DNA of 64,000 nucleotides from a virus, in the IMG/VR virus record IMGVR_UViG_3300025674_000016, positions 64,001-128,000 of that record; one strand, 5' to 3'. A model generated the notes under the pieces. It was not told the DNA's origin. It ran no database searches and saw only the letters and a list, made by a program, of their open reading frames with translations. Shown here piece by piece: positions 864 through 56,222 of this stretch. The translations under genes were made by a program, and so were the position numbers. Numbering within the stretch: the first letter of the stretch is position 1; the number at the start of each line of letters is the position of its first letter.

Positions 864-3569
864 ATGTCCACACAAGATTGCCCACCAGTAATACCCCCAA
901 GCAATATAGGCGGCGTTGAAACACGGCAAATTGCCACTGAAAGCCCTGCGTCTCTTGCGAGACCTAGAACAATAGGCAAAAATAAAACTGTTATTGATAG
1001 TGAAAATTTTCAAGTTTTTCCAGAAAGAATGTATAGACAAGGGCCAACACCATTTACAGAAGAGAGGCGTGCAGGTGAAATAAGCCAAGAGTGGATTGAT
1101 TATGGGAAATCTGGGTATGATGGCACTAAGATAGAAGATAGATTTAGATTTGAGTCTAGGTGCTTTTGGACAACATTTGAATTTGGGTCATCAAGAACTA
1201 GCGAATCCTTGAGATATCCCTTGAGATATATAGACAATAATATTTTTAACGCTACTAGTGCTGGAACTAAAAATAGATTCGCGTTTAACCTCCAAACAGA
1301 TGAGGTCGAGACCGGTATTACTGGTCCGGAGAAGTGGTATCCTAGCGGTGATTATATTCCTGATATTTTAAAAGATTTCTGCACAAAGCAGCAGTTCAAG
1401 ATTATTAGGAGACTTGAGAATTTTAGAAATGTTACCACGCAATTTAAAACTTATGTTGAAGGAGGAGAAATCGAAGGGTTCTATTTTGAGCCCCTCTTTG
1501 ATAAAACTAAAACCTTCTTTGATCATTGTCACATAACAAATGTACCATTTTTCCCAAAAGAATTGGAAAAGGTAAACAATATAAACAACCCAGCGATAGT
1601 CTCAATAGATTCGGAATATAATTTCAGAATATCAAAATATGAGCAATCAATAAGCAGTATAACGAATGGTGTTAGCAACAACGATGTTCTTCTTCCAAAT
1701 ATGTATGTTTTTTTATTCGACAAAAAAAGAGAAAATTTGGGCCTAGATACATCTATATTTAAGAGTCATTTAACTCTGGGTGGTCTTTTACCAAACGAAA
1801 CCATAGATTCTCACGAAGGTCAATATTTTGATAATTGGGGCAGAGCCTTTTCTGCTGGTAGTGATGATTTTAGACCTATAGCTCAATTACTTTCCAAATA
1901 TAGACTACTTTTCTTATCTCCAAATGATATAGAACTATTTAACAACTACAATGATAAGAGATTCTTGTTCCCAATGTATGTTGATTTGCAGTTCTCGACA
2001 GATAGAGAAACTTTCATAGCAGACGCTATAAGAGAATCACAACTTACGATTGCCCTTATGAAAGCCGCCAGTTTGAGCGTTGATTCTTCTCTTTGGGGGG
2101 CCTTCCCCTGGACCAAGCACAAAGCAAGAAATAAAAGATTCACAACAGCTACTGAAATATTGTCAACTGTTGGAGCGCCAAGAAAACAAGTTAGAATAAT
2201 AAGAAACAGACAAAAGAAAATATTAGATATTGCTGCTTGGTGGGAAAGATTTAAAGATCTAGAGTGGTATCAATTAGACAACGAAACAGATGAAAGATCT
2301 GTAATTATGAGCACCTCACTACCAGAAGTCTTTATTTCTGAAAATAGTCAATATAACTTTGCAAGAGCAATAATGTCCTTGGTTTTTTCAGGCAAACTAA
2401 GGCAGATATTAAAAGATAGAATAAGAACATTTGAAGAAATAATGACTGGCAAGCCAGCATATTCTGAGACTTTATTTTATAAAATATCAAAATACCAAGA
2501 AGACGCTAACGGATCAATTAGAGGCAGGCCGATTCAAGAAATATTTGTTCCAAATTCAAGTGAGTTAAATATTTTTAGATATATTGATACACAAGTTGCT
2601 TTTGGAAAACAATATAGATACGTTGTTTATGCTTATGATCTTGTGTTAGGTACTGAATACCAATATAAAGTGCCCGATGGTCAAGATGATTTCATGGATG
2701 GTTTCGCCTCGGCTAGAGTAGAAGTCTTTATGAAGCCTTCGATACAACTAGTCGAAAATCCCTTAGTCAGTACAAGAACCAGCGTTACAGATAGGCCGCC
2801 AATGCCACCAGATGTCGATATCATACCTTATAAAAATGTAAACAATGAAATATTATTCAATTTTAATAGTGTGATTGGAGAGATGACAGCAATGCCCATA
2901 GCATTTACGCCCGAAGATGTTCAAGCTATTGCAAAAATAAGACAAAATAGAGGATTGAGTGCAAACTCCCCAATTGAATTTAAGACAGACGATCTATTAG
3001 ATTATATAGAAATATACAGAACTACGTTTAGGCCAACGAGATATTCTGATTTTGCTAACTTTTTTCACAACTCTGTTGAATCGGACCTAAATGCATCGGC
3101 CAGAGATGACTTTAACCAAGATTCATCAACATTTAAACTATCAGCTACTTCAATTGTTGATGAGTTGAGGCCAAATGTAAAATACTATTATACATTCAGG
3201 GCGGTCGATATAAGAGGAAATAAGTCAAACCCAACTCCTGTCTACTTAGTAGAGATGGTGAGTAGAGATGGCGTTGCTTATCCTAGAGTAAAGATTGTGG
3301 ACATGAAGCCAGTAATGCCAGAAAAATCCACAAAACAGATGAAAAAATATATTAAAATAGCTCCGTCCGTAATTCAGACAGAACCGAATTTTTCAAACAT
3401 GGAAGAATCCTCAACAGCCGCCGATTTGAATTTATCTCTGGGGAACGTGGAAGATTCTTTATTTGCCAAGCATCCACAAAAAAATAAAATAAAAGTTAGA
3501 TTAACCTCAAAAGAGACAGGAAAGAAAATAGATGTTAATTTAAACTTTACTCACAAACATAATAGATAA
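864..3569 (+). CDS. large putative structural/baseplate protein with Fn3-like beta segments
   Basis: 901 aa; YRYVVYAY and VKYYYTFRAVDIRGNKSNP resemble Fn3 strands; gene context. Confidence 0.45.
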   Translation: MSTQDCPPVIPPSNIGGVETRQIATESPASLARPRTIGKNKTVIDSENFQVFPERMYRQGPTPFTEERRAGEISQEWIDYGKSGYDGTKIEDRFRFESRCFWTTFEFGSSRTSESLRYPLRYIDNNIFNATSAGTKNRFAFNLQTDEVETGITGPEKWYPSGDYIPDILKDFCTKQQFKIIRRLENFRNVTTQFKTYVEGGEIEGFYFEPLFDKTKTFFDHCHITNVPFFPKELEKVNNINNPAIVSIDSEYNFRISKYEQSISSITNGVSNNDVLLPNMYVFLFDKKRENLGLDTSIFKSHLTLGGLLPNETIDSHEGQYFDNWGRAFSAGSDDFRPIAQLLSKYRLLFLSPNDIELFNNYNDKRFLFPMYVDLQFSTDRETFIADAIRESQLTIALMKAASLSVDSSLWGAFPWTKHKARNKRFTTATEILSTVGAPRKQVRIIRNRQKKILDIAAWWERFKDLEWYQLDNETDERSVIMSTSLPEVFISENSQYNFARAIMSLVFSGKLRQILKDRIRTFEEIMTGKPAYSETLFYKISKYQEDANGSIRGRPIQEIFVPNSSELNIFRYIDTQVAFGKQYRYVVYAYDLVLGTEYQYKVPDGQDDFMDGFASARVEVFMKPSIQLVENPLVSTRTSVTDRPPMPPDVDIIPYKNVNNEILFNFNSVIGEMTAMPIAFTPEDVQAIAKIRQNRGLSANSPIEFKTDDLLDYIEIYRTTFRPTRYSDFANFFHNSVESDLNASARDDFNQDSSTFKLSATSIVDELRPNVKYYYTFRAVDIRGNKSNPTPVYLVEMVSRDGVAYPRVKIVDMKPVMPEKSTKQMKKYIKIAPSVIQTEPNFSNMEESSTAADLNLSLGNVEDSLFAKHPQKNKIKVRLTSKETGKKIDVNLNFTHKHNR

Positions 3570-7362: not shown

Positions 7363-8270
7363 AAAACACACTCGGCGGATACACAAGGCAAGGCAAGGAG
7401 CTTATGTTTCATTGCCCCAAGTGTGATCACCACAAAAACAAGCTTTCGGTCAATCTCGATAAAAACTGCTTTAAGTGTTGGGTCTGCGATTATTCAGGAC
7501 GAAAGATAAGCAGGCTGATTCGAAATCATGGCTCATTCTTTGACTACAAAGAGTGGAGAAAGTACGACGACCAGATCGAGCTTTCAGATTTTGATAAATT
7601 GCTTGAGATCTTTGAAGAGGAAGGCGAGCCAACTCTTGATTTGCCAAAAGAGTTTACTTCTCTAGTGGGTGACAATATTTTATTTAGTTCCCTCAACGCT
7701 AGAAAATATCTCAAAGATCGTGGAGTATCCAAGATGGATATCCAGAAGTATATGATGGGGCACTGCCCAAGCGGTAAATATCAAGATTACGTTGTTATCC
7801 CGTCGTTCAATATGCAAGGTGATGTTAATTTTTATGTTACCAGAAACTATAAAGGCGGGTGGCCTAACTATCTCAATCCAAGAGTTCCAAAGAACAGGAT
7901 CATCTTCAACGAGTTGTTTATTGATTTCCATCAAGAAATCACAGTTGTAGAGGGTGTTTTTGATGCAATTAAGGCTGGCAGCAATAGCGTGCCGCTGTTG
8001 GGGTCGTCTTTCTCTGAGGAATCGAAATTATTCCAAAAAATCGTTCTCTACGATACACCTGTCTATTTGGCACTAGATCGAGATGCGGAGGCAAAATCAA
8101 TCAAGATTATTAAGAAACTTTTAAACTATGGCATCGAAGTGTACAAGGTTGATACTTCGGGCTTTAGAGATGTTGGCGAGATGACAAAAGAACAGTTTAA
8201 GACAAGAAAAGAAAATGCAATGCTTATGGACCAAGAAAACACTTTGCTTTATGAGGTGCTATCGGTATGA
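7335..8270 (+). CDS. DNA primase (zinc finger + TOPRIM)
   Basis: CPKC..CWVC zinc finger; VVEGVFDA and LALDRDA TOPRIM motifs. Confidence 0.9.
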   Translation: MQTEKIKILKNTLGGYTRQGKELMFHCPKCDHHKNKLSVNLDKNCFKCWVCDYSGRKISRLIRNHGSFFDYKEWRKYDDQIELSDFDKLLEIFEEEGEPTLDLPKEFTSLVGDNILFSSLNARKYLKDRGVSKMDIQKYMMGHCPSGKYQDYVVIPSFNMQGDVNFYVTRNYKGGWPNYLNPRVPKNRIIFNELFIDFHQEITVVEGVFDAIKAGSNSVPLLGSSFSEESKLFQKIVLYDTPVYLALDRDAEAKSIKIIKKLLNYGIEVYKVDTSGFRDVGEMTKEQFKTRKENAMLMDQENTLLYEVLSV

Positions 8271-11200
8271 GAATCCTACATTGTGGTGATATCCACATTA
8301 GAAATCTTAAAAGACATGATGAATACAGACAAGTATTCAGTCAGTTTTATGAAAAGGTAAAAGAATTAAACGTTGACGCCATCTATGTTGCTGGCGACCT
8401 CGCACATACAAAGACACAACTCAGCCCAGAATACTTTGAGTTGGCTTCTGAGTTCTTGAGCTTTCTTGCAGACATCGCGCCAACGATTGTTATCCCAGGC
8501 AACCACGATGGCAACCTGAGATCAACAAAGCGTCAAGATGCCATTACGCCAATTGTTGATGCTCTTGATCACCCAAATCTGGTTCTCTTAAAGAATTCGC
8601 AAGAGATAAAAGTAAAAAAAGGTCTTGTTTTTAACCACCTTTCTGTGTTCGATCAAGATAATTGGATTGAGCCAACTGATCCCGATGCTATTAATATCGC
8701 TCTCTATCATGGCTCAATCAGCGGTTGTATGACTGATAGCGGTTGGGTTATGAAGGAGGGCGAGAATAATATTACTATTTTTGAAGAGTTTGATATGGCA
8801 ATGCTCGGTGATATTCACTTGTCCAATCAATCTCTTGATAAAGAAGGGCGATATAGATATTGTGGTAGTCTTATCCAACAATCGTTTGGCGAGACCAACG
8901 ATAAAGGTTTTCTTGTTTGGGATATCCAGGGCAAGGACGAGTTTACTGTTGAGCACCACATGCTGGAAAACCCCAGCCCATTTATTACAATTGAATTAAA
9001 TGAAGAAGGCAAGATTCCAGATGAAATAAACATCCCAGACAATGCCAGATTAAGACTAGTGTCGGACATTAATCTGCCCCTTGTAACAAGGAACAGAGCA
9101 ATCGATGTTGCCAAAGCTAGGTTTAACCCTGCTTCTGCCTTCTATTATAACCGTGGTAAAAAGCAAAGAAAAGAATTAGAGCAAGTCAAAACAATAAGCC
9201 AAGAAGATACACGGGACTTGGCGGTTCAAGAAAAGTTGATCAAAGAGTTTTTGCAGGACTACAAGGCTAGCGATGAGACTTTAAATAAAATCTTTGCATT
9301 GAACAAAAAGTACAACTCCGCTGTAGAAGAGAATGAAGACGTTTCTAGAAATATTAATTGGAAGCTTAAGTCTGTTTCGTGGGACAACTTATTCAATTAT
9401 GGAGAGGAGAACTATATTGATTTCGAAAAGCTAAACGGCATTGTTGGTATTTTCGGCAAGAACTACTCAGGAAAGTCTAGTATTATTGACTCTATTCTGT
9501 TTTCTCTATTCAACTCTACGTCCAAGAATGAAAGAAAAAATTTGAATATTATCAACCAGAACAGAGAGTGGGCTCAAGGTAAAATCGACATTGAAGTTGA
9601 TAACAAGACCTACTCTATCTTAAGGCAGTGCGAGAAGTACACAAAGAAACTCAAGGGCAAAATAACAAAGGAAGCCAAAACAGATGTGGAGTTTACTGTA
9701 ACAGATAACGCCACTGGAGATGTTGAAGAGCTTAATGGAACATCGAGAAACGATTCTGATAAAAACATCAGAAGAGTATTCGGAACTCTCGATGATTTTC
9801 TTATTACTTCAATGAGTTCCCAGGGTGGAGCACTTTCGTTCATCAACGAAGGGTCAACAAAAAGAAAGGAGCTGCTTGCAAAGTTTTTGGACTTGGAAAT
9901 CTTTGATAAAAAGTTTAAGATGGCAAAAGAAGACGCATCAGACTTGCGAGGTGCCTTAAAAAGAGTGGAAGGGCAAGAATATGCCAATGATATAAAAGAA
10001 GCAAAAGAAAATCTGTCAATCAACGAAAACAAGATCCTAGCTCAAAAAAATAAGTGCAAAAGCTTAGAAGATAACCTAGCAGCAATGCAATCCGAACTTC
10101 AAGAAGTAGAGGCACAGATTAGTTCAATACCTGCTGAGATTGTTAATGTTGCAGAGTTAAAAAATAAATTATCAAACAATCAGAAAAAGTTGGAAAAGAC
10201 GCAAAGAGAAACAGAAGCCAACAACCTTCAGATCAAAGAGTACTCTGCGAAACTTAAGAAGGCTCGTAATTTTCTAAAGGATTTTGATATCGATTCCTAC
10301 AAGAAAAAGCAGCAACAAGTCGAAGAGGTAAATAAAAAGCTTAAAAAACTATCGGAAGATGAGAGGAGCCTTCTTTCCGAGATAAGAACAAAACAGAGAA
10401 AGATTCAACTTTTGAGCGAGGTTCCATGCGGAGATGAGTTTAGAAATTGTAAATTTATTAAAGATGCATATCGAGCAAAAGACGCGATCATTAGTGACAA
10501 CAAGTCCCTAGCCAAGTTAAACGTTGATAAAGGAGCTTATTTGACCGAGATCGAGAGTTTGAACCCTGACCAAGTTGATGACTATTTGCACAAGCATGAA
10601 ATGCTGGTGCGAAAGTGTGAGGGCTGGGAAAACAGTATTTCAATGTTGGAGCTGGGAATAGAAAAAAACAAAGCAATCTGTGAGTCCCTTTCTAAAGAGA
10701 TCGGAGAACTGCAAACAAAAATCGCAGAGTACGAAAAAAATAAAGAAGCTATTGAGAACATGCAAAGCCTGCTTGAGCAAAAGAGTGGAATCACATCCTC
10801 AGTAAAACTTCAGCAAGTTAACTTGGAACATTGCAAATCTAAGGTTCTTGATCTTTACAAGGAGAATGGATCATTAGAACAAAAAATTCAAAGTCTAGAA
10901 GAAGAAAAATTGCAACTAGAAGCTCTTCGTGATGAGTATTCGAGCTACGAGTTGTTTATGCGATGTATGCACTCAAACGGCATTTCTTATGACATCATTA
11001 AAAGAAAGTTGCCCGTCATCAATGATGAGATTGCAAAGGTATTAACAAACGTTGTTGATTTTGAAGTTTTCTTTGAGGAAGACGGCAAAAAACTAAACAT
11101 CTTGATCAAACACCCAAAGTACGATGCAAGACCACTTGAGATGGGCTCAGGAGCAGAAAAAACAATTGCAGCAATGGCAATTAGATTAGCCTTGCTTTCT

Positions 11201-11422
11201 GTGTCAACTTTGCCTCAGCCGGACCTATTTATTCTAGATGAACCTGGAACTGCTCTTGATGAGACAAATATGGAAGGCTTCATCAGAATATTAGATATGG
11301 TGAAAGGTTATTTCAAAACAGTTCTTCTTATTTCCCACCTTGAGTCCTTAAAGGATTGTGTTGACAAGCAGATCACCATCGAGAGAAAAGATGGATATGC
11401 CTACGTCAACTACACAGCCTGA
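8267..11422 (+). CDS. fused Mre11/SbcD nuclease - Rad50/SbcC ATPase (T4 gp47-gp46-like)
   Basis: DIH, GD, GNHD, GDIH phosphoesterase motifs, then Walker A GKNYSGKS, coiled coil, GSGAE signature, FILDEP Walker B and ISH. Confidence 0.9.
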   Translation: MRILHCGDIHIRNLKRHDEYRQVFSQFYEKVKELNVDAIYVAGDLAHTKTQLSPEYFELASEFLSFLADIAPTIVIPGNHDGNLRSTKRQDAITPIVDALDHPNLVLLKNSQEIKVKKGLVFNHLSVFDQDNWIEPTDPDAINIALYHGSISGCMTDSGWVMKEGENNITIFEEFDMAMLGDIHLSNQSLDKEGRYRYCGSLIQQSFGETNDKGFLVWDIQGKDEFTVEHHMLENPSPFITIELNEEGKIPDEINIPDNARLRLVSDINLPLVTRNRAIDVAKARFNPASAFYYNRGKKQRKELEQVKTISQEDTRDLAVQEKLIKEFLQDYKASDETLNKIFALNKKYNSAVEENEDVSRNINWKLKSVSWDNLFNYGEENYIDFEKLNGIVGIFGKNYSGKSSIIDSILFSLFNSTSKNERKNLNIINQNREWAQGKIDIEVDNKTYSILRQCEKYTKKLKGKITKEAKTDVEFTVTDNATGDVEELNGTSRNDSDKNIRRVFGTLDDFLITSMSSQGGALSFINEGSTKRKELLAKFLDLEIFDKKFKMAKEDASDLRGALKRVEGQEYANDIKEAKENLSINENKILAQKNKCKSLEDNLAAMQSELQEVEAQISSIPAEIVNVAELKNKLSNNQKKLEKTQRETEANNLQIKEYSAKLKKARNFLKDFDIDSYKKKQQQVEEVNKKLKKLSEDERSLLSEIRTKQRKIQLLSEVPCGDEFRNCKFIKDAYRAKDAIISDNKSLAKLNVDKGAYLTEIESLNPDQVDDYLHKHEMLVRKCEGWENSISMLELGIEKNKAICESLSKEIGELQTKIAEYEKNKEAIENMQSLLEQKSGITSSVKLQQVNLEHCKSKVLDLYKENGSLEQKIQSLEEEKLQLEALRDEYSSYELFMRCMHSNGISYDIIKRKLPVINDEIAKVLTNVVDFEVFFEEDGKKLNILIKHPKYDARPLEMGSGAEKTIAAMAIRLALLSVSTLPQPDLFILDEPGTALDETNMEGFIRILDMVKGYFKTVLLISHLESLKDCVDKQITIERKDGYAYVNYTA

Positions 11423-11691: not shown

Positions 11692-11850
11692 GTGAAAATT
11701 AAAAAAGGCAGATTGCGACAAATAGTTAAAGAAGAATTAGATAAGTTTGTTGCAAAAGTAAACACTCGTACCCTGAACGAAAGCAAATCAACCCCAGATA
11801 AAATTATAGCTCTTTTGGAAGAACTAGAAAAAGATGGCAATAAAAACTAA
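11692..11850 (+). CDS. 52-aa leader-bearing small protein (not in ORF track)
   Basis: GGAGG RBS, GTG start; MKIKKGRLRQIVKEELDKFVAKVNTRTLNESKSTPDKIIALLEELEKDGNKN. Confidence 0.7.
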   Translation: MKIKKGRLRQIVKEELDKFVAKVNTRTLNESKSTPDKIIALLEELEKDGNKN

Positions 11851-14321: not shown

Positions 14322-15320
14322 ATGACATATCCATTACCTATTTTAACTTGGGAAAGAAGCGATATAAGCTCGTTTTCAAGTCCAACTGTTTTTGATATCT
14401 TGACATCCCTTAATAGTATTTTTGTAAGTTCTAGTTATTGGGAAGTAAAATCAACAGATATATCTATTACTGGGTCTTCCGATTATTATCTTGAGGTTGG
14501 GCCTATTACTAGCGCATCTTCTTCCTATGTTAACCAAAGAATTATTTTTGCTGGTGGTGCCAACCCAAATTCCATGTCAGTGGGATATACAGCGAATGCC
14601 AGCAGGCTCATGATTAACTACTGCCCAGACATAACAGGCCGAACAGAATCAGCAGCAAATTGGAAAACGGCAGATCCATTCTCTGGTTCTAGTATACCTG
14701 GTAAGGGCTTTGTCAAGCTAGGAGATACGTTTTCTACTATTACTCGTCTCTATGGCTTGATATGTCAAGAGGGGGTTATTTTAAATCTTAGAAAGGGGCT
14801 AGGGACTAACACTGCCTATCCATTCATGGCCGGTGCCCTTGTTGACCCCGGCCATGGAAACGGAGGGGACGCAAACAATCGACGTTGGATTTTGGCCTCT
14901 CAAGGAAGTTATGGAACATGGAATTCATCAACGCATGCTGCCATACCACAGACATCCGCCAATTTTTTTCTAAAAAACACAAGCACCACAAATGACTATC
15001 CTCACGCTTTTGTATGGAAAGAGTCTGACGACACTTGGGACTATAGTGTGGTGTGTGATACTGCGCACGATATCGAAGCAACATTGAGCAACAATAGAGA
15101 TATTGTTGATGACCAAGGATACATTGTACCACCACCAATGAGGGTTGTGGGGGGTAACGGCTCCCCAAATCGGGCTTACGGCTTTTTAAGGCAGATTTAT
15201 TTTTGTATTATTGGACAAGACGCAGTAGTAAAGCAAGGCTTAACGAGCAATGATTTATATTTTGTGTGGAGCCCGGTGAGTTCTAGTGACGGTGATGCCT
15301 TCATGGTAACTAATTTTTAA
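14322..15320 (+). CDS. putative virion/receptor-binding protein, paralog A
   Basis: Full-length similarity to 15333-16367. Confidence 0.5.
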   Translation: MTYPLPILTWERSDISSFSSPTVFDILTSLNSIFVSSSYWEVKSTDISITGSSDYYLEVGPITSASSSYVNQRIIFAGGANPNSMSVGYTANASRLMINYCPDITGRTESAANWKTADPFSGSSIPGKGFVKLGDTFSTITRLYGLICQEGVILNLRKGLGTNTAYPFMAGALVDPGHGNGGDANNRRWILASQGSYGTWNSSTHAAIPQTSANFFLKNTSTTNDYPHAFVWKESDDTWDYSVVCDTAHDIEATLSNNRDIVDDQGYIVPPPMRVVGGNGSPNRAYGFLRQIYFCIIGQDAVVKQGLTSNDLYFVWSPVSSSDGDAFMVTNF

Positions 15321-15332: not shown

Positions 15333-16367
15333 ATGACATACCCACTACCTACTTTAACTTGGGAGATGAGTGAACAAGAAACTTTTTCAAGTCCAACTAT
15401 CTTTGATATCTTAACATCTCTTAATAATATTTTTACAAGCGCATCATACTGGGAGGTTAAAAATTCAAGCCTCGCATCGACCGGCTCTTCTGATCATTAT
15501 CTTGAGGTTGGACCTATTACTAGTGCCTCTGCATCTTACGCAGATCAAAGAATTATTTTTGCTGGCGGCGCCAACCCAAATACCATGGCATCATATTACA
15601 CACAGGTTTCCGACCGTTTAATGATTAATTTTTGCCCGGATATAACAAACAGAACACAGACAGCAGCAGATTGGAAAACAGCCGATCCATTTGATGGAGC
15701 AGACATACCAGGAACAGGCTTTGTTCAGCTTGGAACCTCATATAGCAGTATGAGTAGGATTCATGCGATCACTTGCCAAGAGGGGGTTATTTTGAATTTG
15801 CGAAGAGGAATTGGTAATAACACTGCCTATCCATTCATGGCCGGGGCTCTTGTTGACCCCGGCCACAGCAACGGAGGGGACGCAAATAATCGACGTTGGA
15901 TCTTGGCCTCTCAAGGGGGGGGCACGACGTATTCTCCATTTGGAACATGGAATTCATCAACGCATGCTGCCATACCACAGACATCCGCCAATTTTTTTCT
16001 AAAAAACACAAGCACCACAAGTAACTATCCTCACGCTTTTGTCTTAAAAACCTCCACTAATAGTTGGGACAGCAATGTAGTATGCGATACTGCGCACGAT
16101 ATTGAGGCAACCTTAAGTTCATTTAGAGACATCCTTGATGATCAGGGATACTTGGTACTTCCCTCAACTAGAGTAGTTAGCGGCAATCCAAAGTCTTCGC
16201 CAAGCTTAATGTACGGTTTCTTAAGGCAGATTTATTTTTGCATCAATGCTAGGGATAGAGAGTCTGGGCAAAGTTCGGATGGAGAAAACATATTTTTTGT
16301 ATGGGGGCCAGTTCAGGATGAAGCGTCTAGTCCTGCTGATTCTTTTATGGTAACAAACTTTTCATGA
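15333..16367 (+). CDS. putative virion/receptor-binding protein, paralog B
   Basis: Tandem paralog; 80 bp identical tract (15941-16020 = 14912-14991). Confidence 0.5.
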   Translation: MTYPLPTLTWEMSEQETFSSPTIFDILTSLNNIFTSASYWEVKNSSLASTGSSDHYLEVGPITSASASYADQRIIFAGGANPNTMASYYTQVSDRLMINFCPDITNRTQTAADWKTADPFDGADIPGTGFVQLGTSYSSMSRIHAITCQEGVILNLRRGIGNNTAYPFMAGALVDPGHSNGGDANNRRWILASQGGGTTYSPFGTWNSSTHAAIPQTSANFFLKNTSTTSNYPHAFVLKTSTNSWDSNVVCDTAHDIEATLSSFRDILDDQGYLVLPSTRVVSGNPKSSPSLMYGFLRQIYFCINARDRESGQSSDGENIFFVWGPVQDEASSPADSFMVTNFS

Positions 16368-16781: not shown

Positions 16782-17378
16782 ATGAAATTATTACTTGAAC
16801 GTTGGCGAAAATATTTGAATGAGCAGGATGAGCACGCGCTCTTAAATGAAGCTACAGATTTAGTAAAAAATGGCGAGAACATTATAATGTTTTCAGATTA
16901 TGCTAAGAAGCACATTGAGAGTGGCCACAAGAAACCCGGACTTGGTTCTATCTTTGCCGATTTTGACCTCTCTTTGGTTAGCAAAACTTTAGGCACGATC
17001 CCCCTAGAAGGGAATGGTGGAGTCTATTCAGTGGAAGTTCCGGGCGTTGGATATGATTTGGTGTTGCCAATGGACGAAGCCTTGCAATTACCGGACGCAC
17101 AGAAAACAGTCGTTACAAAAGAAGAACGCCAAGGCCCAGTTGAGGTTATTGGCATCAAAACCTCTAAGCCGCTTTCAGGGTTTTTGCAAAATAAGCTTTC
17201 AGTTGTTGTTAGACAAACAAAAAATATGCAATATGTACCCGATGATGTAAAAGAGCAAGTTGCTGATGCTGTCGCGCAAGGACGCGTCTATTCTGTTTTG
17301 AGCGCTTGGCCCGGACGAGGCGACGTGCCCCCTTCAAGCAAATGGGGAGAGGACTGGGCGGTAATTATACCTTCTTGA
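16782..17378 (+). CDS. hypothetical protein with MKLLLERWRKYLNE leader
   Basis: Leader contains LNE twice; body has KHIESGH..GSIF..VLSAWPG. Confidence 0.6.
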   Translation: MKLLLERWRKYLNEQDEHALLNEATDLVKNGENIIMFSDYAKKHIESGHKKPGLGSIFADFDLSLVSKTLGTIPLEGNGGVYSVEVPGVGYDLVLPMDEALQLPDAQKTVVTKEERQGPVEVIGIKTSKPLSGFLQNKLSVVVRQTKNMQYVPDDVKEQVADAVAQGRVYSVLSAWPGRGDVPPSSKWGEDWAVIIPS

Positions 17379-17405: not shown

Positions 17406-17852
17406 ATGAAAATTACTAAATCAAAACTAAAACAACTTATAAGAGAAGAAATTTCAAAAGTTATTCCAGAAGTTTACTATCTGGAACCAAAGGGCAAGCC
17501 CAGAGCAGCGTATCAAGATTATGAAAATGAAGATTTTCAATATGAAAATGCCGCCAACATGCAAAATAGTGTTAGCAATATACTAGAGCTTCACAAAGAA
17601 CTATGGGACGACTTCTACGACATTGAAGAAGAAAGGACGGATAAAGTTGATTATGACCCTGACCCCGGTGGAGCAGGGACAGCAGATAAATACTTGGAAC
17701 GGATATATAGAGAAATGGGTGAACCATTTGCGTTTTTGGTTAGTAAATACTTGGAGAAAAACAAAATCCCAGCGGAGCAATTATCTAGTGACGTATTAAA
17801 TCCAGATGAGGATAGTCGAGACTACGAATATTATACTGATTTGCCAAAATAA
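17406..17852 (+). CDS. leader-bearing acidic protein (putative internal head protein)
   Basis: MKITKSKLKQLIREE N-terminus. Confidence 0.6.
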   Translation: MKITKSKLKQLIREEISKVIPEVYYLEPKGKPRAAYQDYENEDFQYENAANMQNSVSNILELHKELWDDFYDIEEERTDKVDYDPDPGGAGTADKYLERIYREMGEPFAFLVSKYLEKNKIPAEQLSSDVLNPDEDSRDYEYYTDLPK

Positions 17853-17876: not shown

Positions 17877-18383
17877 ATGAAAATTACTAAATCTAGATTG
17901 CAGCAGATTATAAAAGAAGAAATCCAAGCTGAAATGAAAAAAAACATAGCTTATTCTGGTGTTGTTCTTGACGATAAAAGCGTAGAAAAATTAAAGGCAG
18001 CAGCTAAAGCCATAGGTGTGCCTGAAGGTTTTGTTTTTAAAACAAATGCTGGGGCTCCTTTACCCCACCACATGACAATTGTGGCTTTTAAACCAATTGT
18101 TTACTCAAAAGGAAATAAATCGCATGATTTTAGTGAACATTATCCTGTTGGTGGAGAAGTAACGCTAACAGTAACACACATTGGATTTGATAATGAAGCA
18201 ATGGCTGCCAAAGTTGATCCGCCTGGCCCAATATCTACTAAAAGAATTAACTTTCCTCACATCACAATAGCTATCCGCGAAGGGGGGAAGCCTTCTAATT
18301 CGAATGATATACTCGATAAAAATTTCCAAAAAGTCGAAGAGTTTGAAGTTACGGGCACAGTACAAGAGGTTCCACAAGGATAG
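17877..18383 (+). CDS. 2H phosphoesterase-family protein with MKITKS leader
   Basis: Two HxT motifs (PHHMTI, PHITIA) about 63 aa apart; YSGVVLD and GGKPSNSN resemble the tRNA-ligase CPD-like 2H subgroup. Confidence 0.75.
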   Translation: MKITKSRLQQIIKEEIQAEMKKNIAYSGVVLDDKSVEKLKAAAKAIGVPEGFVFKTNAGAPLPHHMTIVAFKPIVYSKGNKSHDFSEHYPVGGEVTLTVTHIGFDNEAMAAKVDPPGPISTKRINFPHITIAIREGGKPSNSNDILDKNFQKVEEFEVTGTVQEVPQG

Positions 18384-18412: not shown

Positions 18413-18799
18413 ATGAAAATTACTAAATCAAAACTAAAACAACTTATAAAAGAAGAGCTAGAGCAAGTGGTTGAAGAGGGGGAACTGGACGAAGGGTTCC
18501 TTGACCGCTTGATGGGCAGGAGCATGAAGAAAGGCGGAGACATGGTTAAGCCAAAAGTTTATGCTCCCGACAACAGAGGGACAATCAGAGACCTCCAGAT
18601 GGACAAGGACGAAATGGGTGACGCTATCGAAGAGTTCAATTTGTCTCTTAAAGACCTAGACGACAGAATGAAAAGTGAACTGTCCAAAGTGAGGGACATG
18701 GTGCTCGATCTGCAAGATAAAGTTCCTAGCGGCGAAGCTTTTAATAAGATAATTAAGAACTTAGACGACAGAATTAAGGCACTAGAGGGGGGACGATAA
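18413..18799 (+). CDS. leader-bearing coiled-coil protein (putative internal head protein)
   Basis: MKITKSKLKQLIKEE...ELDE/GFLD. Confidence 0.6.
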   Translation: MKITKSKLKQLIKEELEQVVEEGELDEGFLDRLMGRSMKKGGDMVKPKVYAPDNRGTIRDLQMDKDEMGDAIEEFNLSLKDLDDRMKSELSKVRDMVLDLQDKVPSGEAFNKIIKNLDDRIKALEGGR

Positions 18800-21324: not shown

Positions 21325-23373
21325 ATGGCTAGACGAACTATAAGAGCAAGAAGAAACCAACACAACCCTAGAAACCCCACATCTGAACTTTTTAAAAGAC
21401 TGACAAGGCTGCTATCTGGGCCTATTGTTAGTTATCGCAATCAAGCAGAGCGTCAATTGTCTCGTCGCAAGATGGACAAATATAGGTTTAGATCTGCGAG
21501 TGGGCAACAATTTAAAAAAACAACACACAATCCACTGGATTATTTGCACTCTCACATCCTTGCAAACCAAGGCAGAAGCGAGCGGTACGCAGACTTTAAT
21601 CAGATGGAGTATACGCCTGAGATTGCCTCGGCTCTTGATATTTATGCAGACGAGATGTCAACAAGCTCGGATCTCAGACAACTTTTAAAGATTGAGTGTC
21701 CTAATGAAGAGATCAAAAGTATTCTTCACAGCCTCTATTACAATGTCCTGAATATCGAACACAACATGTTCGGATGGTGCAGGACAATGTGTAAGTTTGG
21801 GGACTTTATTCTTTATCTCGACATTGATGAAAATCACGGTGTCAAGAACGTTATTGGCCTTCCATCGCATGAAGTTGAGAGAATTGAGGGTGAAGATCCC
21901 ACAAACCCAAACTATATTCAATTTCAATGGAACTCAGGAGGTATGACTTTTGAAAATTGGCAGGTTGCACATTTCCGTATTCTTGGAAATGATAAGTTCG
22001 CTCCCTATGGAACTTCTGTCCTTGACCCTGCTCGTCGCATTTGGAGACAGTTGACTCTCCTTGAGGACGCAGTAATGGCTTATCGTATTGTTCGATCTCC
22101 TGAGAGGAGGGTTTTCTATATTGATGTAGGTGCAATTCCCCCCAATGAGATCGAGCAGTATATGCAAAAGATTGTAACTCAAATGAAGCGCAATCAGATT
22201 GTCGATACTGACACTGGTAGAGTTGACTTGAGATATAATCCTCTTTCAATTGAGGAAGACTATTATATTCCAGTTAGAGGCGGCAATTCTTCAAAGATCG
22301 AAACACTTGCAGGCGGCTCTTATACTGGCGATATTGATGATATTAAGTATCTGAGAGATAAATTATTGTCGGCCTTAAAAGTGCCTGGCCCCTATTTGAT
22401 GAACAATACTGAAGCCGCTGATGATAAAACAACCCTAGCACAAAAAGATATTAGATTTGCTAGAACAATCCAAAGGCTACAAAGATCTGTTATCTCTGAA
22501 TTGGAGAAGATCGGAATTATTCATCTTTATGTTATGGGGTACAGAACAAAAGATCTTATCTCTTTTAAGTTAAAGCTCAACAACCCATCACAGTTGGCAG
22601 AGATGCAAGAGCTAGAGCATTGGAAATTAAAGTTTGATATTGCTTCCTCCGCAACCGAAGGATACTTCAGCAGACAGTGGGTCGCAAAGAACATCTTTAA
22701 CTTGAGTGATGAAGAGTTTATTCGCAACCAGAGAGAAATGTATTACGACCGCAAGTTTGATGCTGACCTTGAGTCTGCTGCTTCTGCTGCAACCGAGGTA
22801 ACTCAACGAGAATATCAAGGCATGCAGGACTTTGCAGGCAAAGGCGACCAAGCAGGATTTGGTGAAGATAAAGGAGGTGATCTCGGCCTAGGAGATGAAG
22901 GCGGCGGTCTTGATTTAGGAGGTGATCTCGGCGGCGAAACACCAGCAGGAGAGGAAGGTGACACCAAAACACCAGCAGAAGGCGGAGATGAAGGCGGCTC
23001 TCCTCCGGGCGATGACCTTTTATTAGCCAAACCAAGCAAGCGAGATGATGATGTCAAAGTCAAGACAGACGCCTATGGCAAGGTGATAGCTAGAAAAGCA
23101 AAAAGATCAAAAGGCTGGTACAAGCCGGTTCATTACGATCAGAGAGAAAGTTCAGGCGCGAGATATAAAAATAAAAAATCAAAATATGCTGGCGATATGG
23201 GATTGACTTCCAAGACAATAACACCTGGCAGATACCAATTGGGCAGAATTTCTAAGGGCATAACTGAGGGCCAAGATACTAGTTATAGGGAAGAAGAATT
23301 GCTTTTTGAAGCTAGTAGTGAAATTAGAGATTTGATCTCACAGATGGAGAAGCGCGATGAAACTAAAACATAA
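21325..23373 (+). CDS. portal protein (T4 gp20-like) with long acidic Gly-rich C-terminal extension
   Basis: LLEDAVMAYRIVRSPERRVFYIDVG, EDYYIPVRGG, DIRFARTIQRLQ. Confidence 0.95.
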   Translation: MARRTIRARRNQHNPRNPTSELFKRLTRLLSGPIVSYRNQAERQLSRRKMDKYRFRSASGQQFKKTTHNPLDYLHSHILANQGRSERYADFNQMEYTPEIASALDIYADEMSTSSDLRQLLKIECPNEEIKSILHSLYYNVLNIEHNMFGWCRTMCKFGDFILYLDIDENHGVKNVIGLPSHEVERIEGEDPTNPNYIQFQWNSGGMTFENWQVAHFRILGNDKFAPYGTSVLDPARRIWRQLTLLEDAVMAYRIVRSPERRVFYIDVGAIPPNEIEQYMQKIVTQMKRNQIVDTDTGRVDLRYNPLSIEEDYYIPVRGGNSSKIETLAGGSYTGDIDDIKYLRDKLLSALKVPGPYLMNNTEAADDKTTLAQKDIRFARTIQRLQRSVISELEKIGIIHLYVMGYRTKDLISFKLKLNNPSQLAEMQELEHWKLKFDIASSATEGYFSRQWVAKNIFNLSDEEFIRNQREMYYDRKFDADLESAASAATEVTQREYQGMQDFAGKGDQAGFGEDKGGDLGLGDEGGGLDLGGDLGGETPAGEEGDTKTPAEGGDEGGSPPGDDLLLAKPSKRDDDVKVKTDAYGKVIARKAKRSKGWYKPVHYDQRESSGARYKNKKSKYAGDMGLTSKTITPGRYQLGRISKGITEGQDTSYREEELLFEASSEIRDLISQMEKRDETKT

Positions 23374-25142: not shown

Positions 25143-25203
25143 CAGATGGAAGCTACAGCCAGTTCGTCGTTGTCGTAATGGCTGCATAATCGCGCTGGGG
25201 TGA
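25135..25203 (+). CDS. 22-aa peptide MNNRWKLQPVRRCRNGCIIALG
   Basis: GAGGT RBS; overlaps the upstream stop; fills the gap before the protease. Confidence 0.35.
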   Translation: MNNRWKLQPVRRCRNGCIIALG

Positions 25204-25226
25204 GCCCAGCCAATCGGAGAATTAAA

Positions 25227-25832
25227 ATGTCAGATATAAACAAATATTTAATTCGAGAGTTCTATGAACTTTGCGATGGTGGTAAATGCGAAGACTTTTT
25301 AACGGAGTCTGAAAAAAGAAGAGTCAGGGAGGGAAAGGTTACTATTCTTTCTGGGAAACTTCAAGAGGCGGAGTGTCTTAACGGCAACAAGCGTATTTAC
25401 CCCATGAACATATTAAAGCGAGAAGTTGAAAACTATCGTAAATTTGTCGAACAACGCAGGGCAATGGGCGAGCTAGATCACCCCGATTCAAGCGTTGTCA
25501 ACCTTCAAAATGTTTCACACATTGTTACAGATATCTGGTGGGACGGAAAGAAAGTAATGGGCAAGATTGAAGTCCTGAACACACCAAGCGGCAATATCCT
25601 TAAGAATCTTGTTGAGGCTGGTATCAAGATGGGCATCTCCTCTAGAGCACTCGGCAGCGTTACCCAGAGAAATGGCAAGACATATGTTGAGGATGATCTA
25701 CAACTAATTTGTTTCGATATGGTCAGCGAACCTTCGACACCAGATGCCTTTATGTTAAAAGAACATAGAATGAGAAATTCTAATTACGAACCCACAAACA
25801 TTCACAACTTATTGGACAGCATACTTAAATGA
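25227..25832 (+). CDS. prohead core protease (T4 gp21-like)
   Basis: NGNKRIYP, GELDHP, GISSRALGS, FDMVSEPS. Confidence 0.93.
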   Translation: MSDINKYLIREFYELCDGGKCEDFLTESEKRRVREGKVTILSGKLQEAECLNGNKRIYPMNILKREVENYRKFVEQRRAMGELDHPDSSVVNLQNVSHIVTDIWWDGKKVMGKIEVLNTPSGNILKNLVEAGIKMGISSRALGSVTQRNGKTYVEDDLQLICFDMVSEPSTPDAFMLKEHRMRNSNYEPTNIHNLLDSILK

Positions 25833-26245
25833 AACGAAATGAATTAAAAAAAGTTTTAAAACCTCTTATTAAAGAGTGCATTAAAGAGGTTATTTTTGAA
25901 GAGGGAGTTTTATCTGGCTTGATATCAGAAGTTCTAAAAGGAACGTCCAGCGCACAACTGGTTAGTGAAGCCCCGCAAAAGAAAGTTCAAAAACCAAGGG
26001 CAAAGTCAATAGAAAAGCGGCCAGCCAGACAAGATAAGTTAAATGAAATGAGAAGATCACTCACCGAAGCTATCGGCAAAGATGCTTACGGTGGCGTGGA
26101 TATCTTCGAAGGCGTTCAGCCTATTTCAAAAGCAGGTACACCAGGACCAGCGGCACCATCAAGTCCGCTGCAAGCCTACGCACCAAACGATGCGGGTGTT
26201 GATATCAGTGCGATATTCAACCCAAATTGGAAAAATTTAGTATAA
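25829..26245 (+). CDS. hypothetical protein, leader-like N-terminus
   Basis: MKRNELKKVLKPLIKECIKE..; LNE site. Confidence 0.6.
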   Translation: MKRNELKKVLKPLIKECIKEVIFEEGVLSGLISEVLKGTSSAQLVSEAPQKKVQKPRAKSIEKRPARQDKLNEMRRSLTEAIGKDAYGGVDIFEGVQPISKAGTPGPAAPSSPLQAYAPNDAGVDISAIFNPNWKNLV

Positions 26246-26254
26246 GGAAAAGAG

Positions 26255-26518
26255 ATGTCAAGAGTAAACGCCGAGGTAAAGGTAAGAAGAGGAGAATCTG
26301 TCGAGAAAGCAATGCGAAAGCTCAAAAAGATCTTAAAGAAAACAGGTTTTCTTGATGAGCTAAGAGAGCGCCGATATTACGAAAAACCTTCTGTTACAAG
26401 AAGAAAAAATAAAGCAAAGCGCCAGAGGCTTATAGATAAACAAAACAAGCTTAGAAAACTTGAGGAAGAAAGATTATATAAGCCGAAGAAAAGGCGAAAC
26501 AAGAGGAGAGATAAATAA
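26255..26518 (+). CDS. rpsU: phage-encoded 30S ribosomal protein bS21
   Basis: VKVRRGESVEKAMRKLKK...ELRERRYYEKPS signature. Confidence 0.9.
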   Translation: MSRVNAEVKVRRGESVEKAMRKLKKILKKTGFLDELRERRYYEKPSVTRRKNKAKRQRLIDKQNKLRKLEEERLYKPKKRRNKRRDK

Positions 26519-27006: not shown

Positions 27007-28011
27007 ATGAGTTCAATGCTAGAACAGGCTATTGTTGATGCTGCCGCACTTAAAGAAGCAGCATTGAAAAATGCCGAACAACAAGTTTTAGAAAGATATT
27101 CCAAAGATATAAAAGAAGCAGTGAATGCTTTATTGGAGCAGGACGAGCTGGAAGACGCGCCGCCCATGATGATGGAGCCAGAGCCCGTTATGGACGAAAT
27201 CCCCCCTGCTCCTGCCGCAGGCGAGAAGCTTTGTCCTTGCCCCGATGACGAAGAAGTTGTTGAATTAGATTTAGATAATCTAATGATGCAGGTCGATGAT
27301 GAAGAGCCAGATCCAGAAGATGCAATGGATCGAGAAGGTGTAGCTCAAGAGTTGGGCGATCAAGATGATCTTCTTGGTGGGGACTTAGGTGGCTTAGAAA
27401 CAGGCGACGAGGAAGAAGAAGGTCTTCAACTTGAAGAGAACATTGATATTGATGAATCAGATTTAATTGATCTTGTTGAGGAGCTTGTTTTCGATCACAT
27501 GTCGCAGCCTAGCGGAAACCCAACGGGCCTGCCTGTTGAGGATCTTCATAGAGAACAAGAGCTTGAGGAGCTAGCAAAGCAGATTCAACAAGCAAATGAA
27601 AAAAAGAAAGATCTTCAAGAATCACTTAAGGATTCAAGATCGGAGAACAATAAACTTAGAAGAACAGTTTTAAAACTAAAAGAAAAACTAGACGAAGCAT
27701 TGGTTTCCAATGCAAGACTAATTTATACAAACCGTGTGCTGGGGAACGACTCCCTGAATGAGCGACAAAAAGATAAAATTGTCGAAAAGATCTCCGAAGC
27801 ACGAACAATTGAAGAAGCCAAAATGATCCATGAGGCACTTCAAAGTGCAGTGGCGGGCACTTCCAAAAAGGAAGGTCCAAAATCACTGAACGAAGCAGTT
27901 TCACGTCAATCAACACAGGTTTTTTCACGTCGTCAACGATCCGAGACCAATCAGGTCAACGATCAATTTTTTAAGAAGATGCAGCGTTTAGCTGGCATCA
28001 AAAAGAATTAA
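27007..28011 (+). CDS. prohead core scaffold protein (gp22-like)
   Basis: Very acidic, coiled coil, many LxE sites, ends MQRLAGI; directly upstream of the capsid gene. Confidence 0.8.
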   Translation: MSSMLEQAIVDAAALKEAALKNAEQQVLERYSKDIKEAVNALLEQDELEDAPPMMMEPEPVMDEIPPAPAAGEKLCPCPDDEEVVELDLDNLMMQVDDEEPDPEDAMDREGVAQELGDQDDLLGGDLGGLETGDEEEEGLQLEENIDIDESDLIDLVEELVFDHMSQPSGNPTGLPVEDLHREQELEELAKQIQQANEKKKDLQESLKDSRSENNKLRRTVLKLKEKLDEALVSNARLIYTNRVLGNDSLNERQKDKIVEKISEARTIEEAKMIHEALQSAVAGTSKKEGPKSLNEAVSRQSTQVFSRRQRSETNQVNDQFFKKMQRLAGIKKN

Positions 28012-28027: not shown

Positions 28028-29767
28028 ATGAGCGTTTTACAAAAGTTAACCGAAGGCATTGTTAATCGTAACATCCAGAAAGAGGGCGAAGCTCTTCTCC
28101 AGAAGTGGGAGCAGACTGGTCTTCTTGAGGGTATGGATAACGAAAATGCCCGTTCAAACATGGCTGTTCTCTTGGAGAACCAGGCCAAAGAGCTTCTCCG
28201 AGAGGCTTCTTCTATGGCGGCTGGTGATGTCGAAGGCTTTGCCAGCGTGGCATTCCCCATCGTCCGCCGAGTCTTTGGTGGTCTTATCGCCAACCAATTG
28301 GTCTCAGTCCAACCTATGAGCTTGCCTGCTGGCTTGATTTTCTTCCTTGACTTTACTTATACCGATAGCCGCGCTGGTCAAACTGCCGGTGAGTCGGTAT
28401 ATGGTGGTAATGTTGTTGGTAAGGGTCTTGTCGATGGTGTGGACCTGTCTCCGACTGGAGATACGCAAGCGGGTGGTTTTTATGACCTTAGCACTGGCTA
28501 TAGTTCTCCAACTGGCTCTGTTTCTGTTACCACAGCAGCACCAGACGGCTCTACTGGTGATTTGCCAACTGTGCTAACTGATGTTGCAGTTAGTGCTCTA
28601 TCGGAAGCACAAAAAAAGGCCCTCCAGTACGACCCGGATATCCTAGCAGATGCAAGCTTGAAAGTCACAGTTCACAAGTCGCCTAACGCTGCTACTTCCG
28701 ATTTCCCAAACTTGAATCTAAATGCCCTGACTGCAATTGAGGCATCTGGTATTGATGGTGTTCTAGTGCGAAGGCTAACTAGAATTGATAAAAACGATAG
28801 CAACAAATTAGTTTTTGTAGTTATTAGGGACGCTGCGACACCAGAGGCGCACGGAGCTATCACCTTTAACTATCCGATGACAGACAAGTATGAAGCTAGT
28901 ACCGCCATTGGTTCTGTTGTTGGTAACGTTCCATTTGGCCTTGAGGGTGCAGATGATGTGTCTGGCGGTGATTTTGACGGTTCAACCCGCGATAGAATCC
29001 CAGAGATTGATATCAAGGTCGATTCTGTCAGCGTGACCGCTGTCACCAAGAAGTTGAAGGCCAAGTGGACCCCTGAGTTGTCTCAGGATCTTAATGCTTT
29101 CCACAACATGGACGCAGAAGTAGAGCTTACATCGATCCTTTCCGAGCAGATTGCTCTTGAAATCGATCAGGAAATCTTGAATGATCTTGTTAAGGATGCT
29201 ACTGCTGGCACATACTATTGGAGCCGTCGCCCCGGTCGCTTTGTTGATCGCGGCACTGGCGATGATATCAGCGGCCTTTCTAACGAATCTCTCTTGGGTG
29301 CAGATTTCACTGGCACAGTCAGTGAATGGTACGAGACCCTTATTGAGACAATCAACGATGTCTCTGCGCAGATCCACCGCAAGACTCTGCGCGGCGGAGC
29401 TAACTTCTTGGTCTGTGGTCCTGAGACCGCAAATGTCCTAGAGTTCACCGCTGGTTTCCGCGCTAGCGTTACCCACGATGCAGATACTGGCCAAGCCGGT
29501 ACTGTTAAGATCGGTGCGATCTCCAAGAAGTTCGACGTTTACGTCGATCCTTACTTCCCAAGAAACGTGGTTCTAGTTGGCCGCAAGGGCTCCAGCTTCC
29601 TTGAAAGTGGCTACGTCTACGCACCTTATGTGCCTCTACAGGTCACGCCGACTATCTTCGGTGTTGAGGACTTTGTGCCTCGTAAGGGCGTTATGACGCG
29701 CTACGCCAAGAAGATGGTGAGGCCCGACATGTACGGCTTGGTTGTTATCAAGGACTTCCTTGGCTGA
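28028..29767 (+). CDS. major capsid protein (T4 gp23-like)
   Basis: VQPMSLPAGLIF, KLKAKWTPELSQDL, EIDQEIL, YAPYVPL, PRKGVMTRYA. Confidence 0.97.
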   Translation: MSVLQKLTEGIVNRNIQKEGEALLQKWEQTGLLEGMDNENARSNMAVLLENQAKELLREASSMAAGDVEGFASVAFPIVRRVFGGLIANQLVSVQPMSLPAGLIFFLDFTYTDSRAGQTAGESVYGGNVVGKGLVDGVDLSPTGDTQAGGFYDLSTGYSSPTGSVSVTTAAPDGSTGDLPTVLTDVAVSALSEAQKKALQYDPDILADASLKVTVHKSPNAATSDFPNLNLNALTAIEASGIDGVLVRRLTRIDKNDSNKLVFVVIRDAATPEAHGAITFNYPMTDKYEASTAIGSVVGNVPFGLEGADDVSGGDFDGSTRDRIPEIDIKVDSVSVTAVTKKLKAKWTPELSQDLNAFHNMDAEVELTSILSEQIALEIDQEILNDLVKDATAGTYYWSRRPGRFVDRGTGDDISGLSNESLLGADFTGTVSEWYETLIETINDVSAQIHRKTLRGGANFLVCGPETANVLEFTAGFRASVTHDADTGQAGTVKIGAISKKFDVYVDPYFPRNVVLVGRKGSSFLESGYVYAPYVPLQVTPTIFGVEDFVPRKGVMTRYAKKMVRPDMYGLVVIKDFLG

Positions 29768-55925: not shown

Positions 55926-56222
55926 TTGAAGATAATAAAGTCAAAACTAATACAAATAATTAAAGAAGAGCTTGATAAAGAGGCGGTGAGGTCAGAAAAG
56001 GAGGCGGCTGTCGATTCCTTGCTGGGCAGTAGGCCACTTACCATTCCTCAACTAGAGCTTCTTTTTCCAAATTCTGAAGCTGAAGATATAAAAAATATAG
56101 AAACAGAACTTAAAAAGTTTGAAGAATTTGACCGCGAAGGGTACAGAGAAGCCTTGCTTGACCTTCTTTATCAACAGAAACCTATTGACCCCGAAGGAAA
56201 CCCCTTGGAATTCTCCTCTTGA
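55926..56222 (+). CDS. leader-bearing protein (putative internal head protein)
   Basis: MKIIKSKLIQIIKEEL; GGAGG RBS. Confidence 0.65.
   Translation: MKIIKSKLIQIIKEELDKEAVRSEKEAAVDSLLGSRPLTIPQLELLFPNSEAEDIKNIETELKKFEEFDREGYREALLDLLYQQKPIDPEGNPLEFSS

Follow-up and report, generated by a model that had tools for sequence, protein, structure and literature searches.

In bacteriophage T4, the capsid-targeting peptides of internal proteins are removed by the prohead protease gp21 (PMC5694885, PMC3012670), which cuts after Glu in (L/I)xE motifs, for example at ITE-6 and LTE-619 in Alt (PMC5694885). Iyer et al. (2017) predicted capsid packing and injection for those phage 2H domains that lack an association with RNA ligases (PMC5512222). 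Enzymes of the 2H clade that comprises CNPase and the cyclic phosphodiesterase (CPD) domain of the tRNA ligase Trl1 convert 2',3'-cyclic phosphates to 2'-phosphates, according to two reports (PMC6379707, PMC4643303). Here we analyzed a gene at 17877..18383 (+ strand) of a 64,000-nucleotide stretch of viral DNA (the window), which comprises bases 64001–128000 of the 155.7 kb IMG/VR virus record IMGVR_UViG_3300025674_000016 (estimated completeness, 86%). An earlier note, made from the sequence alone, had proposed that this gene encodes a 2H phosphodiesterase carried on a capsid-targeting-like leader. The product, hereafter CPD, consists of a separable N-terminal leader and a predicted 2H domain of the Trl1-CPD/CNPase type, and its leader may serve to load the enzyme into the phage head.

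The prediction of Iyer et al. and the present proposal are alike in assuming capsid packing and injection of ligase-unlinked phage 2H enzymes. However, the 2H domains described by them were fused to MuF, portal or multi-domain proteins (PMC5512222), whereas CPD is a solo domain of Trl1-CPD type behind a T4-style leader. Since the general idea had already been published as a prediction, the advance made here is incremental. What is new is the Trl1-CPD/CNPase type of the enzyme, the division of one family into ligase-linked kinase fusions and ligase-free, leader-tagged forms of the head module, the location of the CPD gene beside the prohead protease gene in relatives, and the swapping of leaders on near-identical catalytic domains.

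Sequence motifs and predicted fold of the 2H domain

The CPD gene encodes 168 amino acids followed by a stop codon, and GGAG is located 10–13 nt 5' of the ATG; the assignment was based on the list of open reading frames (ORFs), the sequence itself, 40 homologues, and a Pfam match. Residues 1–22 (17877..17942) constitute the amphipathic leader (MKITKSRLQQIIKEE...) and residues 23–168 (17943..18380) the 2H phosphoesterase domain. The two HxT motifs read in the earlier note were present as H65-M-T67 (nt 18069–18077) and H128-I-T130 (nt 18258–18266), within catalytic motif 1, H64-H65-M66-T67 (18066..18077), and catalytic motif 2, P127-H128-I129-T130 (18255..18266). HHMT and PH.T were invariant in an alignment of 36 homologues. 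Among 63 diverse representatives of the family, only H65, T67, H128, T130, and S142 were invariant, and H64 and M66 were conserved in at least 90% of the sequences.

The single Pfam match of CPD was PF08302, the phosphodiesterase domain of fungal tRNA ligases (28.4 bits against a cut-off of 23), although the alignment was limited to residues 87–155 and the second half of the model, which weakens this assignment. The same model was matched by 48 of the 63 relatives. The Acb1 model (PF23474) matched neither CPD (E up to 1) nor any of the 63 relatives (E up to 0.01). CPD likewise had no match to the LigT/ThpR models PF02834 and PF13563; the LigT model was matched by none of the relatives, and PF13563 (2'-5' RNA ligase) weakly by one.

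An AlphaFold2 (AF2) model of CPD was built from the family alignment. It had a mean pLDDT of 91.8 and consisted of a helix at residues 5–22 followed by a compact beta-rich domain at residues 24–166; pLDDT exceeded 90 over most of the domain and was lower (73–83) in the leader helix. The significant Foldseek matches in the PDB were CNPase catalytic domains, and all strong PDB fold matches of this predicted structure were 2H enzymes. The highest structural similarity was to CNPase (Z 13.7, rmsd 2.6 over 135 residues), followed by goldfish RICH and the Candida albicans Trl1 kinase-CPD (6u05), both with Z 10.8. Acb1 (7t26; Z 7.9 over 115 residues), a Burkholderia phage phosphodiesterase (Z 7.5), and LigT/ThpR-type enzymes (Z about 6) ranked lower. 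A literature search for the phosphodiesterase of Burkholderia phage BCSR5 (PDB 9q2y) returned no paper. In a viral structure library, the best matches were giant-virus proteins, one of them named as an RNA ligase, which ranked above the Acb1 entries. Since the PDB gave nothing significant when searched by sequence, whether with the single protein or with a narrow or a broad profile, the link to solved structures rests on the Pfam match and the predicted fold.

These results indicated that CPD is, as judged from its sequence and modelled structure, a 2H phosphoesterase of the Trl1-CPD/CNPase clade with intact catalytic motifs, and it is very probably an active enzyme. The earlier note had thus assigned the domain correctly, and its impression that the motifs were closer to the CPD of tRNA ligases than to Acb1 was borne out by both the Pfam matches and the structural comparison with Acb1, LigT, and the tRNA-ligase CPD that it had proposed.

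CPD shares with the Trl1 CPD of fungi and plants (PF08302; C. albicans KIN-CPD, 6u05) the above-threshold Pfam match, the two HxT motifs, and the 2H fold, and its sister phage proteins have the same order of kinase and CPD, with RNA ligases nearby. Unlike Trl1, it is a viral, stand-alone domain of 146 residues with a leader and with no fused kinase or ligase. Vertebrate CNPase (PDB 9eru, 2y3x, 1woj), the top structural match, also places a kinase-like domain ahead of its 2H domain, as in the phage kinase-CPD fusions; however, the sequence identity is about 15% with no match at the sequence level, and CNPase is approximately 70 residues longer and membrane-associated. We know of no established physiological substrate of CNPase itself. 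Acb1 (PF23474; PDB 7t26, 7t27) resembles CPD in being a small phage-encoded 2H enzyme for which an early anti-defence action has been proposed, but it differs in its Pfam model and its lower structural similarity, and the partners of the CPD family are a kinase, a CCA-adding enzyme, and a ligase.

A separable and interchangeable leader

The first 17 nt of the CPD gene were identical to the starts of the two adjacent genes on the + strand, at 17406 and 18413 (three matches, against 0.71 expected by chance). The upstream gene (17406..17852) encodes an acidic protein of 148 amino acids and the downstream gene (18413..18799) a coiled-coil-like protein of 128 amino acids; both carry the same leader on cargo that is unrelated to CPD. 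Neither CPD nor its leader-tagged neighbours matched any PHROG, and the 17406 product also had no Pfam match. Beyond the 17 nt, the three leaders diverge by synonymous and conservative codon changes, suggesting that selection acts on the leader peptide. Leaderless homologues of CPD begin at the position of residues 23–26; starts such as MSISYSAVV and MNISYSGIV lie 1–3 residues before I24. This indicated that the leader is not part of the fold.

Two types of leader were distinguished: type A, MKITxxQLKxIIKEEL, as on CPD, and type B, MKLLxENWRxYLxE (MKLLLERWRKYLNE), as on the 198-residue product of the gene at 16782..17378 (+). In a pattern census of the own genome and related loci, both types were found on many unrelated cargoes, including an AAA_33 kinase, a pentapeptide-repeat protein, and several proteins without any match. 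We also conducted an unbiased test on 81 sources, in which unrelated ORFs sharing at least 11 of their first 15 residues were collected. N-termini common to unrelated cargo occurred only in this T4-like marine group, and there were none in 64 of the 81 sources.

In a domain tree made after removal of leaders and fusion partners, types A and B were intermixed inside one clade with 99% support, and CPD domains just 0.01–0.07 substitutions per site apart bore different leaders. The cargo family of the 16782 product showed the same swapping between A and B and additionally contained a third leader type and untagged members. Because leaders are swapped both on near-identical CPD domains and in this second family, they are, on comparison of the sequences, modular and functionally interchangeable. 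The leader recognized in the earlier note therefore has the separability expected of a tag.

Several further sequences with leaders or leader-like N-termini were noted. Type A leaders occur on ORFs at 11692–11850 (GTG start; VKIKKGRLRQIVKEE) and 55926–56222 (TTG start; LKIIKSKLIQIIKEE) of the window, and on two more elsewhere in the genome (C1:2165, 498 aa, and C1:6229). The tagged pentapeptide-repeat protein of a related contig (L009:8468–9334; PF00805, E 1e-50) is possibly a DNA mimic among the cargoes. The N-termini of jumbo-phage kinase-CPD proteins (MKEKIKEILREG...) looked leader-like by eye; they were not counted as tags, as no unrelated proteins in those loci share them.

Relation to the head genes and the prohead protease

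The large genes of the region are all on the + strand. The CPD gene is followed by the gene for the terminase large subunit (from 19757) and by those for a T4-type portal protein of the gp20 family (21325..23373; PF07230, E 1.5e-76), a gp21-type prohead protease (Peptidase_S77, 25200..25832; PF03420, E 1.9e-30; phrog_207, E 2e-54), and a gp23-type major capsid protein (28028..29767; PF07068, E 1.1e-71). The closest cultured capsid proteins were those of Microcystis phage Mel-JY01 and Rhodothermus phage RM378, with identities of only 38 and 32%, respectively, and by this measure the marine phage is a distant, uncultured T4-like virus. The head module of Mel-JY01 contained none of these leaders.

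The type A leader carries an (L/I)xE motif, a predicted cleavage site, at residues 12–14 (I12-K13-E14 in CPD). A second (L/I)xE was found exactly where the conserved cargo starts (VLNE/GGVAYSG, YLNE/ATDLLQ; the slash marks the junction) in 24 of 31 type A and 22 of 22 type B proteins, compared with approximately 28% of control N-termini. Among the 148 ORFs ranked by (L/I)xE density, the top two sit between the protease and capsid genes. The first, a conserved head-core candidate (25829..26245, +; 5.1 sites per 100 aa), adjoins the protease gene in relatives too, and its N-terminus, LKPLIKECIKE, resembles leader A; the second is a scaffold candidate with 16 sites (27007..28011, +). In T4, scaffold genes occupy the corresponding place. 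The capsid protein has four (L/I)xE sites in residues 9–59 and the next one not before residue 193. Since such sites are concentrated in the core and scaffold candidates and in the N-terminus of the capsid protein, the specificity of the protease looks conserved, as far as sequence patterns can tell.

In five related contigs (L003, L004, L005, L007, and L008), CPD is inside the head module, between the portal and S77 protease genes. It immediately precedes the protease gene in L005, L007, and L008, and one gene intervenes in L003 and L004, the order in L004 being CPD, leader-tagged kinase, and protease. Other leader-tagged genes were also found between portal and protease in related contigs. 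In T4, this slot is occupied by the prohead core genes 67 and 68, and we regard the gene position in relatives as the most telling link of CPD to the head.

The similarity to the T4 capsid-targeting system of internal proteins IPI–III and gp21 consists of a short N-terminal tag with (L/I)xE that is common to unrelated proteins, in a phage encoding a gp21-family protease and T4-type portal and capsid proteins. In contrast, the leader and the T4 tag MKTYQEFIAE, compared by eye, have nothing in common except MK at the start and IxE at the end, which makes the leader an analogue rather than a homologue. Furthermore, this putative tag exceeds the T4 one in length, exists in two or more types that can replace each other, and is often accompanied by a second site where the cargo begins. 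On balance, it is probable by a modest degree that the leader is a capsid-loading tag. The support for packaging and injection of the enzyme, namely the (L/I)xE motif, the gp21-family protease in the genome, and the position by the protease in relatives, is circumstantial.

Several observations weigh against packaging. Unlike most leader proteins, CPD has no second site at the junction. In the window, its gene precedes that of the terminase and is 7 kb upstream of the protease gene; in G004, a complete genome, about 100 kb separate CPD from the protease. No late-promoter signal was detected: the T4 late-promoter motif (TATAAATA) was found four times against 3.25 expected, and scans for sigma-70 promoters and terminators were uninformative, so that late expression of CPD would follow from gene position only. 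A test of whether leader-tagged CPDs are confined to genomes with an S77 protease favoured neither side, as most of the records are fragments and complete jumbo-phage genomes with this protease also carry untagged CPDs.

The same enzyme may instead remain in the cytoplasm of the producing cell, with the leader acting as a shared helix for oligomerization, for docking to a cytoplasmic partner, or for control of translation or stability. (L/I)xE is a short motif that is also seen in approximately 28% of control N-termini, and besides the distance in G004, leader genes also occur in long arrays far from head genes (L010, L011, and L068), all of which would suit a cytoplasmic enzyme. However, such an enzyme would leave unexplained the five contigs with CPD beside the protease, the exact placement of (L/I)xE at the boundary of leader and cargo, and the resemblance of leader A to the N-terminus of the conserved core protein adjoining the protease. 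A location away from the head genes is also no obstacle to packaging, given that the internal-protein genes of T4 likewise lie apart from its head genes. We therefore regard a purely cytoplasmic role as possible but rather improbable.

Distribution and architectures of the CPD family

A profile search yielded 1,917 cluster representatives at E up to 0.001, and 103 CPD loci were found in viral contigs. No CPD homologue was found by tblastn against 50,697 cultured or deposited phage records, and a pattern scan of 185,579 prokaryote species genomes, in which the broader alignment was not used, found no CPD relative. Five architectures were observed: solo CPD domains of about 130 residues, fusions of approximately 310 residues with an N-terminal P-loop kinase, CPD located C-terminal to a nucleotidyltransferase of the CCA-adding/poly(A)-polymerase type, CPD combined with another 2H domain (of Acb1/LigT type), and very long multi-domain proteins with CPD. 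In the domain tree, the family was divided into two groups, one of kinase-fused and mostly untagged forms and the other containing all leader-tagged forms. A kinase domain preceding the 2H domain is thus absent from CPD of the window and present in its sister clade.

The two groups differ in their genomic setting. In jumbo-phage contigs, the kinase-CPD gene is located 1–4 kb from genes for Rnl1-type and Rnl2-type RNA ligases. In G012, for example, the kinase-CPD and ligase genes are at 2574–3509, 4850, and 9443; G010, G011, and G013 have the same arrangement, and G017 additionally has Tpt1. From its gene content, this arrangement is a heal-and-seal RNA repair cassette, as described for jumbo phages (PMC7824862). 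In contrast, neither RNA ligase nor Tpt1 was found in the own record or in G001–G007, of which G004 is 100% complete. An AAA_33 kinase was present in only 3 of 10 related records. In two of these three, L004 and L068, it is encoded separately, adjacent to CPD, behind a leader of the same kind. The L004 enzyme is an AAA_33 kinase and at most a candidate polynucleotide kinase, as its match to T4 Pnk in the PDB reached only E 0.1.

Some members of the family have unusual domain combinations. In the metagenome proteins P0183, P0089, and P0060, fusion of a CCA-adding/poly(A)-polymerase-type nucleotidyltransferase with a C-terminal CPD suggests a tRNA 3'-end repair enzyme with a 2H domain in place of the HD domain. 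P0054 (1320 aa) has an N-terminal CPD followed by a second 2H domain of Acb1/LigT type. In G019, a complete 127.6 kb genome without an S77 protease, CPD is at the N-terminus of a 2459-aa protein (L014:9920 onward).

Probable substrate and alternative roles

The membership of CPD in the Trl1-CPD/CNPase clade, the kinase, ligase, and CCA-enzyme partners of its relatives, and the leader-tagged kinase beside CPD in L004 and L068 all point to RNA ends. RNA ends are accordingly favoured over immune signals, and by a small degree we lean to 2',3'-cyclic phosphate ends of RNA as the substrate.

Several results speak against repair of RNA as the outcome. The own record, at its estimated completeness, contained no AAA_33 kinase, Rnl1, Rnl2, RtcB, Tpt1, or CCA-adding enzyme, and complete G004 contained no AAA_33 kinase, Rnl1, Rnl2, or Tpt1 (RtcB and the CCA-adding enzyme were not searched there). 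As neither a kinase nor a ligase was found in these two, a repair pathway autonomous to the phage is absent. Moreover, RtcB-type ligation does not accept 2'-phosphate ends. The healing of RNA or tRNA ends suggested in the earlier note consequently stands in part: fusions and neighbours favour RNA-end processing, but classic heal-and-seal is not supported either, since this phage group has no RNA ligase. For the same reason three fates of the healed ends are possible, namely joining by a host ligase, conversion to ends unusable for RtcB, and entry into decay.

The earlier note had also suggested an anti-CBASS function. In its general form, a capsid-delivered nuclease would, before phage gene expression and in a way similar to Acb1, destroy an immune messenger, which could be a cyclic oligonucleotide, a nucleotide with a 2'-5' linkage, or a molecule with a terminal 2',3'-cyclic phosphate. 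Acb1 does have a 2H fold (PMC9117128) to which the CPD model can be matched, the leader-tagged group is without RNA ligase, and either this function or that of an RNase was proposed by Iyer et al. for those phage 2H domains that never occur in linkage with RNA ligases (PMC5512222). However, the lack of any Acb1-model match among the 63 relatives, of which 48 match the tRNA-ligase CPD, and a structural similarity well below those of CNPase and Trl1, gave no specific support to this function. In L004 and L068, CPD is accompanied by a kinase that bears a leader, and fusions with kinases and CCA-adding enzymes are seen in other relatives. Partners of these kinds argue for polynucleotide ends rather than small signals, and we consider an anti-signalling nuclease unlikely.

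It is very unlikely that CPD, with the kinase where present, is an RNA-decay helper that trims RNase-cut ends for degradation or prevents their re-joining by host RtcB: this would fit the lack of a ligase in these genomes and the precedent of T4, in which the action of Pnk opens RegB-cut mRNAs to RNase E and G, and PNPase requires a 3'-OH (PMC3014915), as well as the weak resemblance of the neighbouring 16782 product to RNases, but that resemblance is slight (Z at most 6.1; nothing in Foldseek at E 0.001 or better), and among 15 related records the 16782 gene co-occurs with CPD only in G006 and is missing from complete G004.

Proposed mechanism

From these considerations, we propose the following for the leader-tagged RNA-end enzyme. 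CPD would be produced together with the head genes, and its leader would dock it on the prohead scaffolding core, as the capsid-targeting sequence does for the internal proteins of T4. The gp21-type protease would then cut after E14 (I-K-E), leaving an enzyme of approximately 16.7 kDa in the head, which would enter the next cell with the DNA. There, CPD would hydrolyze 2',3'-cyclic phosphodiesters to 2'-phosphate and 3'-OH, the likeliest substrates being RNA ends made by metal-independent host RNases, and in some relatives a leader-tagged P-loop kinase would handle the 5'-OH end. Taken as a whole, this sequence of events, in which an active CPD is loaded via its leader, trimmed by the S77 protease, delivered with DNA, and acts on RNA 2',3'-cyclic phosphate ends, has somewhat less than an even chance of being correct in all its steps. 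Only tentatively can it be extended to the marine T4-like group, which would load RNA-end-healing enzymes (CPD and, in some members, a polynucleotide-kinase-like partner) into the capsid via interchangeable cleavable leaders and so alter host RNA ends from the moment of DNA entry without a phage ligase.

To our knowledge, the cargo delivered by phages has until now comprised DNA-protecting proteins and transcription-hijacking enzymes. If CPD is packaged, phages also deliver ready-made RNA-end chemistry with their DNA. If the extension to the marine group holds as well, it would provide the first case of RNA-end processing delivered by virions, and 2'-phosphate RNA ends would have a natural source in bacteria. 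The two settings of the family, ligase-linked cassettes in jumbo phages and ligase-free tagged cargo, would provide a clean comparative system for the role of a lone CPD in infection, in which repair via host enzymes, a block on RtcB repair in the host, induction of RNA decay, and removal of signals could be compared. The paired, swappable leaders would represent a compact capsid-loading tag for a large group of uncultured marine phages.

Neighbouring genes

For the 16782 product, a member of an abundant marine family with the conserved motif GH..xGHxxPGxGS, 86 homologues were found, and no Pfam or PHROG match. Its AF2 model had a pLDDT of 89, and the weak structural matches were almost all to RNases of the RelE/ParE, CdiA-CT (BECR), and RegB types. 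It may, as far as the model indicates, be a phage BECR-like RNase. As a partner RNase of CPD it was set aside because of the low Z scores and the lack of consistent co-occurrence.

Just upstream of the cluster of leader genes are two tandem paralogues, at 14322–15320 (332 aa) and 15333–16367 (344 aa), which are 69% identical. A single ORF of 1051 aa at 8267–11422 of the window matched SbcD in its N-terminal and SbcC in its C-terminal part and is apparently a fused SbcCD. Between the protease-adjacent gene and the scaffold candidate there is a small bS21-like ORF (26255–26515), which was found in the same place in related contigs, and RpsU is annotated at this place in Mel-JY01.

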